Source: Planctomycetota bacterium
GTDB lineage: Bacteria; Planctomycetota; UBA11346
Length of the DNA: 64,000 bases
Assembly: GCA_023150565.1 (NCBI GenBank)
Contig: JAKLKR010000001.1
Coordinates: forward strand, 42,180-106,179
Reading direction: 5' to 3'
Below, piece after piece: positions 58,518-63,403 of the stretch. Position numbers and translations under genes: made by a program. Within the stretch, counting starts at the first letter, position 1. Each line of letters starts with the position of its first letter. The notes beneath the pieces were generated by a model. It made no database searches, was not told where the DNA came from, and saw only the letters and a program-made list of their open reading frames with translations.

Positions 58518-59589
58518 GGCCGCTCCAGGACAGGTCGCGGTTGAGGAAGTAGTTCCAGGCGGTGGAGATGGCGATCCCTCCCGCCATGGCCAGCCACAGC
58601 GGGGCGGCGAACTGCTCGTGGTAGTAGAAGGTCAGGGCATGGTTGATCATCGCCCCGGTGCCCGAGACGAGCAGGAACAAGCCCAGGCCGCGCATCACGT
58701 TTCCCACACCGGAATGGGCGCGGTCGCGGAAGGTCCACAGGTTGTTGATGACATAGTTGGACACCGCCGCGGTGGCGATGGCGCAGGCGGTGGCGGCGTG
58801 CTCGCTGGCCAGGCGGTCCCACAGCAGGAAGAAGCTGGCGAACTGGACCACCACCCCGCTGCCTCCGACCAGGCCATACTTGAGGAAGCGGGCGCTGACC
58901 AGGCGGCGGGTGGCGAGTTCGGCCAGCGACAGGGCGAAGTCCCACACCACCTGGCCGGAGAGCTTGCTCTCACCGGCCGAGCGCGGGGCGAAATGGTAGG
59001 GCACCTCGCCGATGCGGGCCGGACGGAGCACATGCAGCAGCTCCATCAGGATCTTGTAGCCGCGCGGATTCAGCCGGGGGACGATGGCCAGGAAGTCGGG
59101 GCGGCGCAGGGCGAAGAAGCCGCTCATGGGATCGGTGGTGCGCACCCCCAGCACCAGGTTGCAGGCGGCGGTGGCCAGGGTCGAGGCCAGCCGGCGGCGT
59201 TTCGACCACCGGCCGGTGCCGCCTCCGGGTGCATAGCGGGTGGCGACCGCGACCGGGGCGTCGTCGAGGGCCTGGAGCAGCTGGGGGACCACCGCGGTGT
59301 CGTGCTGGAGGTCGGCATCCATGACCACCAGGAGCCTGCCGGTGGCCAGGCTCAGGCCATCGACGATGGCCGACGACAGCCCGCGGCGATCGGTGCGGCG
59401 ATAGCAGCGGATGCGCGGATCGGCCTCGCCCAGGGCCTGGGCCAGCTCCCAGGTCCGGTCCGGGGAGTCGTCGTCGACCACCACGATCTCGTAGGGGCCG
59501 CAGGCGGCCAGCGCCTGGTGCAGCCGCGCCACCGCGGTGGGCAGGTTCTCGCGCTCGTTGTAGGTCGGCAGGATGACGGAGACGTTCAT
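58501..59589 (-). CDS. Polyprenol-phosphate glycosyltransferase (GT2, DPM1-like) fused to GtrA domain
   Basis: VILPTYNERENL, VVDDDSPDRT, MDADLQH, DPMSGFF, GESKL. C-terminal FLKYGLVG...NNLWTF...NYFLN GtrA domain. Confidence 0.92.
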   Translation of the reverse strand: MNVSVILPTYNERENLPTAVARLHQALAACGPYEIVVVDDDSPDRTWELAQALGEADPRIRCYRRTDRRGLSSAIVDGLSLATGRLLVVMDADLQHDTAVVPQLLQALDDAPVAVATRYAPGGGTGRWSKRRRLASTLATAACNLVLGVRTTDPMSGFFALRRPDFLAIVPRLNPRGYKILMELLHVLRPARIGEVPYHFAPRSAGESKLSGQVVWDFALSLAELATRRLVSARFLKYGLVGGSGVVVQFASFFLLWDRLASEHAATACAIATAAVSNYVINNLWTFRDRAHSGVGNVMRGLGLFLLVSGTGAMINHALTFYYHEQFAAPLWLAMAGGIAISTAWNYFLNRDLSWSGHARPE

Positions 59590-59691
59590 GGGCGACCTGC
59601 TTCCGGGAGGCTCTGTGCTGGTCAAGCGGATTTCGGACTCGGGTTGCTGAAGACATAGGAGCGCGATGGTCAACGCGTTGGTCGCCCGACC

Positions 59692-59910
59692 CCCTTGACG
59701 CCGAGCACGGCGGGCCTGATCGCCGAGGGCGAAGGGACCGGTGCATGGTTGGTGGCCACGAGGGTCCTTGGTCCCTTCGCCCACGTCGAGCATGCCCACC
59801 GTGCTCGGCGTCAAGGGCTGCGCGCCGGCGCGGCGCTTGCCGCCTGCGGCGGGGCCTCGCTGGTTGCCAGGCGAGGCGGTCATCCGCAGGGCTCAGCTAA
59901 CCGCTGCATG
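59692..59910. ncRNA. Putative structured non-coding module, copy 1 (IS3 3' region)
   Basis: Long imperfect hairpin CCCTTGAC...GTCAAGGG (59692-59817), small hairpins, then GGGCTCAGCTAACCGCTGCATG. Homologous to 60998-61224. Transcription not shown. Confidence 0.45.
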
Positions 59911-59922
59911 ATCAGTGGCCGG

Positions 59923-60897
59923 TCATGCGGCGGTCTGGGCTTTCCAGTAGGCTCGACGTTTGGCGTCGGCTTCATCGAAGGTGGCTTTGCGTTGGGCGAG
60001 TTTGGCGGCGATGTGGGCGGGGCCGCGCAGGGCGTCAGCCGGGGTCAGGTAGTGGATGGCGCTGTGCAGTCGGACGGTGTTGTAGTGGAGGACGTAGGCG
60101 GCAACGACAACTCGAGCTTCTTCGAGATCGCCGAGGGCGGTGCGTCGGATGCACTCGGTCTTGATGCTCTTGTGCCAGCGTTCGATTTTTCCATTCGACT
60201 GGGGATGGCGGACCCGGGCTTTGGAGTGGGCGCAGCCGGCGTCACGCAGGAAGACCTTGAACTGGGCCGACACGTATTGGCTGCCGTTGTCGCTGATGAT
60301 CCGTGGCCGAGGCGTGCCCTTGGGCAGCGTGTCGAGGGCGCGTTGCATGACGATCTCGACGTCTGCGGTCTCCATGCGCAGACGGATCTCGTGATGGATG
60401 ATCGCGCGGGAAAAGCCGTCCAGCACGCTGATCAGGAAATACTGGGTTCCCAGGATGTTCAGGTAGGCGATGTCGGTGTGCCACTGCTCGTGCGGGCCTT
60501 CGGGTTGGTCGAAGCCCTTCTTGTGCGCCCCGGAGGTCGGTTGCTTCCAGCGACCGATCAGACCCGCGTCCTTCAGGATCAGGTACACCGTGCTCGGACG
60601 GACCGCCGCCACGCCCGCATCCGCGATCATGAACGCCAGACGCCGGTACCCCTCCTCCGGATGTTCGCGGGAAAACGCGATCACCGCCGCCTGCTCCTCA
60701 GGCGTGAGGTGATGCGACTGAGGCACCAGCACCACCGGACGCGCTGACTTCCCGCCACTGCGAGCCCAGTCGAAATACGTCGAACGCGGCAACGCCAATA
60801 CCGTCAACGCCTGCTTCACCGGAAACTCGGACCGCTCCTGCAGACGCTGCACCACCGCCACCACCTCGGCACTGACCTGGGGCGAAACCTGACGCAC
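59923..60897 (-). CDS. IS3-family transposase OrfB (rve integrase core)
   Basis: GYRR, WHTDIAY, LDGFSR, IISDNGSQY, HPQSNGKIER, YNTVRLHSAIHYLTP. The -1 frame is open back to the slippery site (KKSTWGDLTVRQ). Confidence 0.92.
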   Translation of the reverse strand: MRQVSPQVSAEVVAVVQRLQERSEFPVKQALTVLALPRSTYFDWARSGGKSARPVVLVPQSHHLTPEEQAAVIAFSREHPEEGYRRLAFMIADAGVAAVRPSTVYLILKDAGLIGRWKQPTSGAHKKGFDQPEGPHEQWHTDIAYLNILGTQYFLISVLDGFSRAIIHHEIRLRMETADVEIVMQRALDTLPKGTPRPRIISDNGSQYVSAQFKVFLRDAGCAHSKARVRHPQSNGKIERWHKSIKTECIRRTALGDLEEARVVVAAYVLHYNTVRLHSAIHYLTPADALRGPAHIAAKLAQRKATFDEADAKRRAYWKAQTAA

Positions 60898-60997
60898 GGT
60901 CAGGTCGCCCCACGTGCTTTTTTTGGGTCTTCCGGCGAATTCGTGGGTCGGATGACCGCCTGACGGCGGCTTGAGCGGCCGTCCGTATGCGCCGGCA

Positions 60998-61224
60998 CCC
61001 TTGACCGCTTGCGCGCGGCAGGCGTGTCGCCGTGGGCGAAGGGACCGATGGATGTCAGCGAGCGCGGCGTCTTCGGCCCTTCGCCCCCGTCGAGCGTGCC
61101 CGCCGTGCTCGCGGTCAAGGGCATCGCGCCGGAGTCGGCGCTTGCCGCCTGCGGCGGTGCCTCAATGCAGGCGGGGTCGTGGTCGGTCGCGGCCTCCGGC
61201 GGGGGCTCAGCTACCCGCTGGATG
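60998..61224. ncRNA. Putative structured non-coding module, copy 2 (ISL3 5' region)
   Basis: Hairpin CCCTTGAC...GTCAAGGG (60998-61121), GCGCTTGCCGCCTGCGGCGG, GGGCTCAGCTACCCGCTGGATG. Compensatory changes relative to copy 1. Confidence 0.45.
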
Positions 61225-61297
61225 GAGGCAGCAGAAGAACGTGCATCGCTTCGGCTGACCGGTGAATCCGGCCCTGTGAAGAGGGGAGGCCGGAGCG

Positions 61298-62566
61298 ATG
61301 CACATTGAGACTCTGCTGCGCCATGTCCATCCGATCAAGGGATTCAGCTACGAGACCATGCGCCTGTCCGGCGAGCGCGGCAGCGAACGGCTGTGCTGTC
61401 CGATCCGGCCGCACCGCCGCAATCAGGCGATCTGCTCGGCCTGCGGGACGGCAGGACCGACCTACGACCACTTGCCGCCAAGGACCTTCCAGATGGTGCC
61501 GCTGTGGGGCATCCCGGTGCTCCTGCTGTACGCCATGCGGCGCGTGTCCTGTCCCCAGTGCCAGCGCATCGTGGTCGAGCGGGTGCCGTGGGCGGAGGGC
61601 AAGAGCCCGATGACCACTGTCTTCCTGGTCTTCCTGGCGAGTTGGGCGAAGGTGACCACCTGGAAGGAGGTCGGCAGCCGCTTCTACGTCGGCTGGGACG
61701 CCGTGTATCGGGCCGTTGCCTGGGTGGTCGCCTACGGCAAGGAGCACCGCGTTCTGGACAACGTCACCGCCATCGGCGTCGACGAGATCCAGCGCTCCCA
61801 CGGGCAGCGCTACCTGACCATGGTCTATCAGATCGACCGGGGATGTCGGCGGCTGCTGTGGATCGGTCGAGGGCGCACCAAGAAGTCCTTCAAGCCGTTC
61901 TTCACGTGGTTCGGGCCAGAGCGCTGCGCCAGGATCCGCTTCTTCTGCACCGACATGTGGAAGCCCTACCTCGACCTCATCGCCAAGAACGCCCCCAACG
62001 CCATCAACGTCCTCGATCGCTTCCACCTGGTGGCCAAGCTCGGCCTGGCTGTCGACGAGGTCCGCCGCAAGGAGATGGCCAAACTGCGCGCGATGGGCAA
62101 GGCGGTCCTGGTGCGCACCCGGTGGATCTGGCTCAAGCGTCCGGCGAACCTCACCCGCAAGCAGCGGCGGCACCGACAGGACCTCTTCGCCAATCCGGTC
62201 AACCTCAACCTCAAGACCATCAAGGCCTACTTCTTCCGCCTCGACCTCGACCGCCTGTGGACCTTCTCCATCCCCGAGCACGCCGGGGCCTTCCTCGACG
62301 ACTGGTGCCGACGCGTCATGCGCTCGCGCATCAAGCCCATGATGGCCATGGCCAGGACCTTCCGCGTCCATCGCCACCTGATCCTCAACTACTTCCGCGC
62401 CTGCAAGGTGTTCTCCTCCGGCGTCGTCGAAGGGCTCAACAACAAGGCCAAGGTCGGCATGCGGCGCGCATACGGGAATCGCAGCGACGACGTGCTGGAA
62501 ATCGCGCTATTTCACCAGCTTGGAGCACTGCCTGAGCCGCCGGTGACCCACAGATTCTGCGGATGA
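61298..62566 (+). CDS. ISL3-family transposase
   Basis: Zinc finger CSACG...CPQC, VPWA, AIGVDE, CTDMWKPY, LDRFH, SSGVVEGLNNKAK, THRF C-terminus overlapping the IR. Confidence 0.95.
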   Translation: MHIETLLRHVHPIKGFSYETMRLSGERGSERLCCPIRPHRRNQAICSACGTAGPTYDHLPPRTFQMVPLWGIPVLLLYAMRRVSCPQCQRIVVERVPWAEGKSPMTTVFLVFLASWAKVTTWKEVGSRFYVGWDAVYRAVAWVVAYGKEHRVLDNVTAIGVDEIQRSHGQRYLTMVYQIDRGCRRLLWIGRGRTKKSFKPFFTWFGPERCARIRFFCTDMWKPYLDLIAKNAPNAINVLDRFHLVAKLGLAVDEVRRKEMAKLRAMGKAVLVRTRWIWLKRPANLTRKQRRHRQDLFANPVNLNLKTIKAYFFRLDLDRLWTFSIPEHAGAFLDDWCRRVMRSRIKPMMAMARTFRVHRHLILNYFRACKVFSSGVVEGLNNKAKVGMRRAYGNRSDDVLEIALFHQLGALPEPPVTHRFCG

Positions 62567-62647
62567 GGCAGAAAAGGTGAGTTTACGAAATATCATCTTT
62601 GATGATACCGACCCGTCGCCTGCCGCGTTGACCGCGTCGGGCACGGT

Positions 62648-63403
62648 TCAGGGCAGCTTCTGGGGATTGCGCAGGGCGGTGATGGCGTCGGTGGCGGTGC
62701 GGTTGGCGACGTGGCCGTCGAAGAACAGCACGTTGACCCGGTTGCCGCGATGGCGCGGCCCGCCCAGGTATTGGGTGATGGTCGGATCGCTGGTGCGCGA
62801 GGCGAACATCACCGGGCTGTAGGTCTTGAGATGCCAGTCGTTGCTGTCGGCGATCAGCAGCCGGCTGCTGGTGAAGGTGATGGTGCCCAGGGCGAAGGTC
62901 CGCTTCACCGGGCCGTTCCAGAAGGCGATGCCTTCGTTGTTCTGGTCGTCGCTGCCCGGCACCAGGTTGCCGGCCGCGTCCAGGGCCAGGGCGGGCTGGT
63001 CGTTGAGGCCGTAGCTGAATTTGGAGGGTTCCAGCGATCCCGTCACCTTGGGGATGCCCTGGAAGCTCGGACAGCCCCACAGCACGGTGCCGCGACTGCG
63101 CATGCCGATGGCGGTGATGTTGTAGGAGTGGTCGGCATCGACATAGGTGCGCAGCCGGCCGTACCAGCTGTAGGACTCGGGGTTGATGGCGCTGTAGTTC
63201 GACGCCATCGCCACCAGCAGGCCGTCGTTGTCCTCGGCATAGGCCTGCACCGCCAGGCCGAGCTGGCGCTGCGACGACTGGCAGCGGGTCGACTGCGCGG
63301 CCTCGCGCACCACGTTGACCGCCGGCAGCAGCATGCCGGCGAGGATCGCCACGATGGCGATCACCACCAGCAGCTCGATGAGGGTGAATGCGCAGGCCCG
63401 CAT
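62648..63403 (-). CDS. Prepilin-type N-terminal cleavage/methylation protein with H-X9-DG domain (DUF1559-like)
   Basis: [53 protein letters not shown]. Confidence 0.9.

Follow-up and report, generated by a model that had tools for sequence, protein, structure and literature searches.

How does one and the same folded, non-coding piece of DNA come to lie in two unrelated insertion sequences (IS), and what might it do there? The question is raised by a stretch of 64,000 nucleotides from a Planctomycetota bacterium (GenBank assembly GCA_023150565.1, contig JAKLKR010000001.1, positions 42,180 to 106,179; the whole stretch is referred to as the window), in which an IS3 element and an ISL3-family element each contain a copy of a structured module, here called the cassette. 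The original prediction, made from the sequence alone, saw in the two copies a structure-selected non-coding module hitch-hiking between unrelated IS families, and this view is supported, as the fold covaries and the carriers are multiple. The cassette is a discrete non-coding unit of ~220–250 nt, and at least six unrelated kinds of mobile element carry it, all of them, among the genomes searched, in one Planctomycetota family. It is a passenger in the dispensable terminal spacer of IS3, ISL3, two IS110 lineages, several IS21 lineages and an element with two ATPase genes.

Architecture of the cassette

Both copies were confirmed at the predicted positions, 59692–59910 (copy 1) and 60998–61224 (copy 2), with hairpins of 126 and 124 nt and conserved boxes (Table 1). 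The order of parts is a short left extension, a hairpin of 124–130 nt, an optional GC hairpin, the box CCGCCTGCGGCGG, a variable stretch and the box GGGGCTCAGCTAACC; within the hairpin the basal (CCCTTGAC/GTCAAGGG) and apical (GGGCGAAGGGAC/GTCCCTTCGCCC) stems are invariant and the loop is variable. By blastn, copies 1 and 2 share 75.8% identity over 231 nt, and an alignment including their flanks has a mean column identity of 78% over 371 columns. The computed RNA folds are very stable, with −143.5 kcal/mol (z = −6.96) for copy 1 and −151 kcal/mol (z = −6.19) for copy 2, values reached by none of 200 shuffled sequences, and hairpins folded as DNA gave z from −4.8 to −11.5 on both strands. Coding capacity was ruled out, since indels of 1, 2, 3, 5 and 14 nt between copies 1 and 2, and others throughout the larger alignment A4 described below, break all reading frames.

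Table 1. Positions of the cassette copies, their carriers and neighbouring features in the window
Feature	Position	Strand	Sequence or basis
Copy 1, long imperfect hairpin	59692–59817 (126 nt)	+	basal stem CCCTTGAC/GTCAAGGG, apical stem GGGCGAAGGGAC/GTCCCTTCGCCC, variable loop; fold and covariation
Copy 1, 3' domain	59818–59910	+	optional GC hairpin, box, variable stretch, final box
Copy 1, optional GC hairpin	59822–59836	+	GCGCCGGCGCGGCGC
Copy 1, box	59840–59852	+	CCGCCTGCGGCGG
Copy 1, box	59889–59902	+	GGGCTCAGCTAACC
Copy 2, long imperfect hairpin	60998–61121 (124 nt)	+	RNA and DNA folds
Copy 2, 3' domain	61122–61224	+	GC hairpin, two boxes
Copy 2, GC hairpin	61126–61141	+	GCGCCGGAGTCGGCGC
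Copy 2, box	61145–61157	+	CCGCCTGCGGCGG
Copy 2, box	61203–61216	+	GGGCTCAGCTACCC
IS3 right terminal region (inverted repeat and spacer)	59614–59691	-	TGTGCTGGTCAAGCGGATTTCGGACT; 19/26 match with the other IS3 end
IS3 orfB, integrase-core part of the transposase	59923–60897	-	open reading frame (ORF) list and translation; relatives L193, L183, L188 with rve
Octamer	60917–60924		CTTTTTTT; 8-bp ISL3 target duplication, also the IS3 A7G frameshift motif on the minus strand
ISL3-family element	60925–62569	+	left repeat 60925–60949, right repeat 62545–62569
ISL3 own leader hairpin, outside the cassette	61235–61304	+	ribosome-binding site (RBS) and start codon paired with an upstream segment
ISL3 transposase	61298–62566	+	relative L002 with DDE_Tnp_ISL3
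Gene start	to 59591	-	ORF list

Conservation and covariation

The alignment A4 (MAFFT) comprises 39 well-conserved copies with a mean column identity of 68%. Its invariant columns are concentrated in CCCTTGAC, GGGCGAAGGG, CGTGCTCG..GTCAAGGGC, CCGCCTGCGGCGG and GGGCTC.GC. Free variation is seen in the terminal loop and in the stretch that precedes the 3' box; the hairpin base, CCCTTGAC/GTCAAGGG, is invariant in all 39 sequences. When A4 is placed on the RNAalifold structure, 97.7% of the cells are paired. Two-sided changes occur at 9 pairs, compared with 4.8 ± 1.1 in shuffled alignments (none of 500 reached 9), and in 50 cells compared with 13.6 ± 2.7; the covariation score of 0.118 contrasts with 0.051 in the shuffles and with 0.018–0.045 when the partners are slid by 1–3 columns. 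Since the A4 sequences are related and not independent of one another, these figures are to be taken as support and not as probabilities.

At the level of single pairs, pair 31/120 is GC in 25 rows, CG in 11 and UA in 3, pair 29/122 is GC in 23 and AU in 14, and several pairs occur as three pair types. The exchange noticed originally between the two stems of the window, GAC-GCC/GGC-GTC against GAC-CGC/GCG-GTC, proved to be real and corresponds to pair 16/133, which is CG in 35 of the 39 rows, GC in three and unpaired in one. Thus the covariation read from two copies survives in 39, and compensatory substitutions that keep the hairpin helices support, by sequence comparison, a structured element of the generic kind, acting presumably as RNA or as single-stranded DNA (ssDNA). 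On inspection, the left extension and the 3' box showed neither consistent pairing nor covariation that would make them a closing helix.

Neither IS110 lineage has the small GC hairpin, whose arms elsewhere alternate between GCGCCG/CGGCGC and GCGCGC/GCGCGC. A further variant is found in genome G013 (L160, L168, L175), where the basal stem and CCGCCTGCGGCGG are the same, the apical stem is swapped for GGTGCCCCGG/CCGGGGCG, the box GGGCTCAGCTAACC is missing, and the cassette occurs in both orientations relative to istB.

Distribution

By DNA search of 61 related genomes, matches at E <= 0.001 were found in 18, and 15 of the 36 other genomes of the same family had one; two weak matches (E 6e-4 and 8.5e-4) fell into other families. 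Many of the matches are located at contig ends, as a repeat would give. From nine full copies (alignment A2) the covariance model R1 was built, with scores of 172–206 bits, and it detected the cassette in 13 of 48 genomes of one Planctomycetota family, these 48 being the whole sampled order. In an even sample of the phylum, two of 151 genomes matched (E <= 1e-8), both from this family, and none of the 144 genomes from 77 other families did; most genomes are incomplete metagenome-assembled genomes (MAGs), so that absence from a single genome is not inferable.

A first scan of a genome collection with the pattern GGCGAAGGGAC N15-45 CCCTTCGCC was too loose, matching unrelated phyla, and sets no taxonomic limit; among the matches listed, at least six were cassette loci (L032, L060, L088, L128, L137, L143), at least three of them in Planctomycetota MAGs. 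A metagenome scan with the hairpin pattern returned 36 loci, 35 with a full-length match and one (L181) cut by its contig end. In total, 54 full instances are at hand, of which 47 are distinct. No cassette match was obtained in viral contigs or in plasmid records.

The cassette matches no Rfam family: in 59000–63000 the best overlapping match was mir-2060 (20 bits against a gathering score of 54.5, E 0.8), and six related loci gave no match at E <= 0.1. A full-text literature search, judged by its result listings, returned no description of a non-coding module common to several IS families.

Carrier elements and position within them

Contexts were classed by flanking sequence and by Pfam matches of the neighbouring ORFs (IS110, IstB/IS21, rve, ISL3, and AAA_22 with AAA_25). 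When the adjacent families are tabulated in this way, the sharing extends well past the IS3 and ISL3 elements in which it was first seen, to two IS110 lineages, IS21 and the AAA_22/AAA_25 element. Altogether 43 of the 47 distinct copies belong to mobile elements, and each of these occupies the spacer that separates the outermost gene from the terminal repeats. Eleven distinct copies are found in IS3, after and convergent with orfB, 78–82 nt inside the right repeat; four in ISL3, between the left repeat and the transposase gene and co-directional with it, 72–73 nt inside; nine in IS110 lineage A (convergent, with the TAG stop of the transposase within GCTAACC); six in IS110 lineage B (convergent); and eight in an element with AAA_22 (TniB/TnsC-like) and AAA_25 ATPases, which has a terminus-like array GTTTCCC...GGGAAAC. 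Five copies belong to IS21 contexts (L180/L198, L187, L160, L168), co-directional with istB in L160 and convergent in L168, L180 and L187. For the remaining four (L194, L175, L161, L173) the DNA at hand holds no mobile-element gene, and three of them are degenerate. In IS3, IS110-A, IS110-B, four of the five IS21 contexts and the ATPase element, the stop codon of the last gene is immediately followed by the cassette.

The assignment to the carriers rests on ends seen with many different flanks. Across genomes and metagenomes, IS3 termini with 15 different outside flanks have the cassette 78–82 nt inside TGTGCTGG; in five genome loci and in the window the distance from TGTGCTGG is 78 nt, and all outside flanks differ. 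Similarly, ISL3 left ends with eight different flanks have it 72–73 nt inside, and the additional partial copies found where contigs end belong to the IS3 or ISL3 type. The many diverged copies at different sites indicate that cassette-bearing elements are competent for transposition.

In the window itself, the IS3 end is located at 59614 and the left extension of copy 1 starts at ~59665; the convergent orfB has its stop 13 nt past the end of the cassette. The far IS3 end, on contig C396 of the same assembly (558 contigs), reads TGTGCTGCCTAAGTTGAATCCGGACT and agrees with 59614–59639 at 19 of 26 positions (hand count), which places copy 1 inside IS3, in the interval from the orfB stop to the right repeat, in agreement with the original prediction. 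The limits of ISL3 were set by at least three different flanks within the same genome (C55, C406, C396): C55 and C406 terminate in the 73 nt that precede copy 2, with differing outside flanks, and C396 begins with the ISL3 right end. These borders confirm that copy 1 is inside IS3 and copy 2 inside ISL3. On C396 the octamer CTTTTTTT follows the ISL3 right end, after which the minus strand encodes an IS3 orfA ending in LQLKK; since the same octamer, read on the minus strand as the programmed-frameshift motif AAAAAAAG, stands at 60917–60924 of the window, ISL3 must have inserted into the A7G motif of IS3 with an 8-bp duplication. The insertion separates orfA (on C396, together with the IS3 left repeat) from orfB (in the window).

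The two flanks of ISL3 in the window are unlike, CTTTTTTT on the left and AGAAAAGG (62570–62577) on the right, the latter being the left flank of the ISL3 copy on C55. As the partners of the two flanks lie on C396 and C55, the contig joins two ISL3 insertion sites, either by collapse of the repeat or by recombination. The join across a repeated ISL3 speaks for the explanation that copy 1 is an artefact, either the remnant of a second ISL3 or a chance likeness between GC-rich sequences. This explanation is refuted and retains practically no probability: the 15 differently flanked IS3 right ends bear the cassette, a DNA contig from another sample (X4) covers 59778–60956 without a difference and so spans copy 1, IS3 and the ISL3 left end, and the covariance-model scores stand against a chance likeness.

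Irrespective of the cassette, ISL3 has a leader hairpin of its own, with a helix of ~16 bp that is present in the minimum-energy folds of three ISL3 variants (those of the window and the equivalents in L002 and L210) and that shows compensatory changes between them (CGCUUCGGCU/GGCCGGAGCG, CGCCCUGGCU/GGCCAGGGCG and CGCCCCGGUU/GGCCGGGGCG). A 92%-identical, cassette-bearing ISL3 variant on contig C557 of the same genome (L019) is truncated after ~155 codons and continues into an inverted duplicate of its left repeat, giving a short derivative that resembles a MITE (miniature inverted-repeat transposable element).

Some further features of the carriers may be recorded here. The ATPase element (L197, L203, L166, L004) has adjacent AAA_22 and AAA_25 genes and ends in a GTTTCCC/GGGAAAC repeat array; it may be a Tn7/Tn5053/Mu-like transposon or a segment of a mobilisable plasmid. 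The left ends of IS110-B (L184, L214, L205, L179, L190) contain ~300 nt of conserved non-coding sequence starting with CTTGTAGCCGGAGTGGCGCC, where a bridge RNA would be expected. In two genomes belonging to one genus (L021, L007), the IS110-A insertion stands immediately downstream of a glmS-like gene with a SIS domain.

Transfer between carriers

A maximum-likelihood tree of 39 cassettes groups them mostly by carrier, with ISL3, IS110-A and the IS21 'X' copies each forming one well-supported clade, and with its deepest split between the two IS110 lineages and the rest. The exceptions are informative. Locus L187 (tree row IS110A_L187) adjoins an IstB gene, and is thus an IS21 element with a cassette of the IS110-A type, placed in the IS110-A clade; two IS21 'X' copies and one copy from the ATPase element are nested within the IS3 group; and in G013 two IS21 elements have the cassette in opposite orientations relative to istB. 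From these exceptions, the number of carrier types and the two IS21 orientations, at least eight acquisitions are needed. On this comparison of sequences, the cassette has been passed repeatedly between unrelated elements and is kept by selection.

Homology between contexts starts ~6–30 nt upstream of CCCTTGAC and ends near GCTAACCGCTG(C/G)A, so that the unit runs roughly from CCGGCNCCCTTGAC to GCTAACCNNTG(C/G). In pairwise comparison the limits vary with the transfer: homology starts 5 nt before the hairpin base in L187 and 25–30 nt before it in L180 and L192. The IstB of L187 ends in AKG*, as the IS110-A transposase does, with the TAG stop inside GCTAACC, from which it follows that a few codons and the stop travelled with the cassette. 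The TAG stop of a convergent gene is found inside the box GCTAACC in three unrelated carriers, namely L187, IS110-A (L021, L008) and the ATPase element (L166). The cassette has supplied the stop codon to the abutting gene in three contexts, and a few C-terminal codons in one. No direct repeat that could be a target duplication flanks the unit in any class.

Because the borders vary and target duplications are lacking, illegitimate recombination between nested elements fits better than a defined transposition. Movement would thus be by rare illegitimate recombination between mutually inserted elements and not by a transposition chemistry of the cassette's own. Nesting is common: ISL3 lies inside IS3 in the window, and IS3 adjoins an ISL3 gene in L193.

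Cassette-less relatives of IS3 were considered as empty sites, but L216 (orfB 74% identical) and L218 (44%) also lack the TGTGCTGG end, so that they define no insertion borders. The only empty-looking site is L016 (G010:C349), an IS3 that lacks the long and the small GC hairpins exactly between two CTTG tetranucleotides and keeps the rest of the cassette. Being otherwise identical to its full-length relative L189, it represents a secondary deletion between internal CTTG repeats, and its sequence points to a loss by slippage across the palindrome.

A different account of the same history would make the cassette a selfish, non-autonomous hitch-hiker, inserted by an enzyme acting in trans into the safe, non-coding ends of IS elements, with the boxes serving as recognition sites. 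The nearest described case is ssr9/MITEPpu9 on ISPpu9, an IS110-family element of Pseudomonas putida. According to the published work (PMC12288879), the module is flanked by ISPpu9 end boxes and mobilised by the ISPpu9 recombinase, forms its own minicircles through this transposase, is dispensable for transposition, occurs with or without the IS and is read as a hitch-hiker that is perhaps regulatory. Like the cassette, ssr9 is a non-coding module of RNA type located 3' of a transposase gene (PMC12288879). Unlike ssr9, which belongs to a single IS, the cassette is spread over six or more unrelated types of element whose chemistries differ, seldom stands alone (4 of 47 copies) and has no carrier end boxes (A'/B') alongside; what is unusual here is the sharing across families. 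By inspection, the ends of IS110-B (CTTGTAGCCGG... and ...AATGCTTGCT) are not repeated beside the cassette, from which the transposase stop is at most 20 nt away. Mobilisation by an IS110 enzyme as for ssr9 was rejected, as the ends of IS110-A and IS110-B could be located and no end-like boxes stand beside the cassette.

An inserted hitch-hiker would agree with a discrete unit of roughly constant limits, with the number of acquisitions by unrelated carriers, with the scarcity of copies outside mobile elements and with the depth of the split that sets the two IS110 lineages apart. It agrees poorly with the absence of target duplications and of terminal repeats at the unit ends, with borders that are not constant between transfers, and with the distribution of candidate enzymes: Y1/HUH transposases, which were tried as mobilisers, occur in 42 of the 48 family genomes and do not track the 13 that have the cassette. 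Moreover, boxes and pairing are conserved in each lineage despite the rarity of transfer, and for this reason selection through the fitness of the carrier, with a function in cis, is likelier than pure parasitism. A selfish hitch-hiker is therefore not a very likely explanation, if one to be kept in mind.

Possible functions

As the cassette is present with DDE elements and IS110 recombinases alike, it is not the cofactor of one transposase. We tentatively favour the reading that it is a portable, cis-acting structured element at the edge of its carrier, a read-through barrier or RNA-end structure that is swapped by illegitimate recombination. What suggests such a role is the constancy of its placement, directly after the last stop and ahead of the terminal repeat or, in ISL3, between the left repeat and the gene, where it would uncouple the ends and the gene of the element from read-through. 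A very stable and roughly symmetric hairpin would act on the nascent RNA both as a barrier and as an RNA-end structure. In most carriers it lies between the last gene and the terminal repeat, and transposase transcripts would be kept from crossing the repeat; in ISL3, where the left repeat precedes it and the transposase gene follows, transcripts from outside would be kept from entering. The invariant boxes suggest recognition by a host factor, for which four CCCTT(G/C) motifs are candidate contacts. This mode of action, in cis and whatever the type of transposase, is the weakest step of the scheme.

A considerable number of observations weigh against a barrier. The hairpin is no canonical terminator, since no run of T (or U) follows it 3' on either strand, and an intrinsic terminator was consequently rejected; a simple scan places neither terminator-like nor promoter-like sites in either copy, the three terminator-like sites found in 59550–61350 all being within IS3 orfB. 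The invariant primary sequence and the asymmetric 3' domain of 90 nt exceed what a barrier hairpin needs, and ~7 of 48 stem positions are conserved transversion mismatches. If it is the transposase transcript that matters, the functional strand would be plus in ISL3 and minus in the other carriers, and yet the asymmetric boxes are still kept in ISL3, if slightly decayed (GCTACCC, GCCACCC). The tests for a functional strand are weak: in a strand-neutral comparison of arm against arm (273 transversion mismatches, 1473 Watson–Crick positions), 63 mismatches are G-U on the plus strand and 33 on the minus strand, and the plus strand gives the better fold in 28 of 39 sequences. Furthermore, ISL3 already has its own RBS-sequestering leader hairpin, contigs from RNA libraries reveal neither transcript ends nor strand, and, to our knowledge, most IS elements do without a structure of this kind.

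Two other roles in cis were considered. The basal TTGAC might serve as a −35 element, and by inspection neither arm has a −10-like hexamer at a distance of 16–18 nt. Anti-Shine–Dalgarno pairing between CCUCC of the cassette and the ISL3 RBS was rejected, as the folds pair the RBS with the leader of ISL3 itself.

Alternatively, and as a rather unlikely variant, the cassette could be a family-independent plug-in, read by a host factor either as RNA or as folded ssDNA, which raises the fitness of its carrier and spreads horizontally for that reason. The range of carriers (IS3, ISL3, IS21, IS110) would then point to a step that involves a replicated or circular intermediate, and the plug-in might, for example, prime or protect the copied-out strand, or shield the joined ends from transcription.

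A further idea is that of an ssDNA signal, a hairpin that would form on one DNA strand during replication of the element as a priming, recombination or oriT-like site and would help elements with replicated or circular intermediates to move. The four carrier IS families, IS3, ISL3, IS21 and IS110, pass through circular double-stranded intermediates. Of IS110, the ssr9 work says so (PMC12288879). DNA hairpins form on either strand with the z values given above, conserved stem mismatches are typical of sites that are read as folded single strands, and in L197 the ATPase element with its cassette adjoins a NikA-like mobilisation gene. The side of the cassette turned towards the nearest terminus is identical in seven of eight context classes, but L160 breaks this rule, which with eight classes is not significant. 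IS4/IS5-type transposases, with two matches per genome in four of five genomes, are too few to show an avoidance of cut-and-paste elements.

Such a signal would also lack the core that defines attC sites (inverse core RYYYAAC, core GTTRRRY), to which the original prediction had compared the module. The two are alike in having an imperfect hairpin of similar size with a conserved base, conserved mismatches and a variable tip, and in being portable; unlike attC, however, the cassette has CCTTGAC/GTCAAGG in place of the core, and neither an array of gene cassettes nor an integrase context. As GTCAAGG departs from the consensus GTTRRRY at positions 3 and 7, an attC identity was rejected and that part of the prediction fails. 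Altogether, an ssDNA signal seems unlikely.

Quite improbable, finally, is a small RNA gene carried as cargo, that is, a trans-acting RNA derived for example from the 3' untranslated region (UTR) of the transposase gene, with the box GGUUAGCUGAGCCCC (minus strand) as seed and the long hairpin as 3' end. Its minus-strand order of seed-like box, small hairpin and large terminal hairpin, right after the stop, resembles that of small RNAs derived from 3' UTRs, and the ISL3 copy is represented in contigs of two RNA libraries: X14 contains ISL3 with its left end and part of the hairpin (60925–61065, 100% identity, depth 2–4), and X19 covers 60950–61163 with 12 differences. These contigs show no strand or ends and may reflect DNA carry-over, and copy 1 is uncovered in the RNA libraries searched. 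The lack of a promoter-like site in the scan, the opposite orientation of the cassette relative to the gene in ISL3, and mismatch statistics that slightly favour the plus strand argue against such a gene.

Comparison with known repeats and IS-associated RNAs

ERIC, Correia and RPE elements are imperfect palindromes of ~100–150 nt with an RNA fold; they are multicopy, can affect transcription or RNA stability and are scattered in the intergenic DNA of the host, with terminal repeats or target duplications. The cassette resembles them as a multicopy, long imperfect palindrome that folds as RNA, but differs in being nearly confined to mobile elements, in its asymmetric 3' domain and in the absence of target duplications. 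Nor does it agree with a MITE or with REP/BIME sequences. The arms of the hairpin are internal, the unit running ~90 nt past the right arm, they are unlike the termini of IS3, ISL3, IS110-A and IS110-B, and no target duplication accompanies them; REP/BIME elements are extragenic palindromes of 20–40 nt, compared with a hairpin of 124–130 nt located in mobile elements in 43 of 47 copies.

Among structures that belong to IS elements proper, hairpins of the IS10/IS50 type sequester the start codon, as cis-acting RNA structures near the IS end that uncouple the transposase from outside transcription. The leader hairpin of ISL3 resembles these anti-read-through structures, whereas the cassette, unlike such element-specific hairpins over the RBS, crosses families and mostly follows the last gene. 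Bridge RNA (IS110) and omega RNA (IS200/IS605) are obligate partners of one recombinase or nuclease family, and a bridge RNA has loops that correspond to its own element's ends and to the target. Like them, the cassette is a structured non-coding module in a non-coding IS end; unlike them, it is also found with the DDE transposases of IS3, ISL3 and IS21. It was rejected as an IS110 bridge RNA, because it is not exclusive to IS110 and because its IS110 carriers keep a separate non-coding left end of 200–300 nt.

Implications

The non-coding accessories of transposons known to us (RNA-OUT, omega RNA, bridge RNA, ssr9) are each tied to one element family. A conserved, covarying cassette retained in six or more unrelated types of element would show that a non-coding function in common can be traded among transposons, in the way they exchange passenger genes. 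A function that is independent of any one transposase would, in turn, have to concern a host-side process faced by all carriers, such as transcription across their ends, replication of their intermediates or RNA decay, and the cassette would be a probe for it. As a hitch-hiker and nothing more, it would live as a parasite on parasites, in an unusual niche. In either case, the cassette provides a sharp marker of recombination between nested mobile elements in the poorly studied Planctomycetota.

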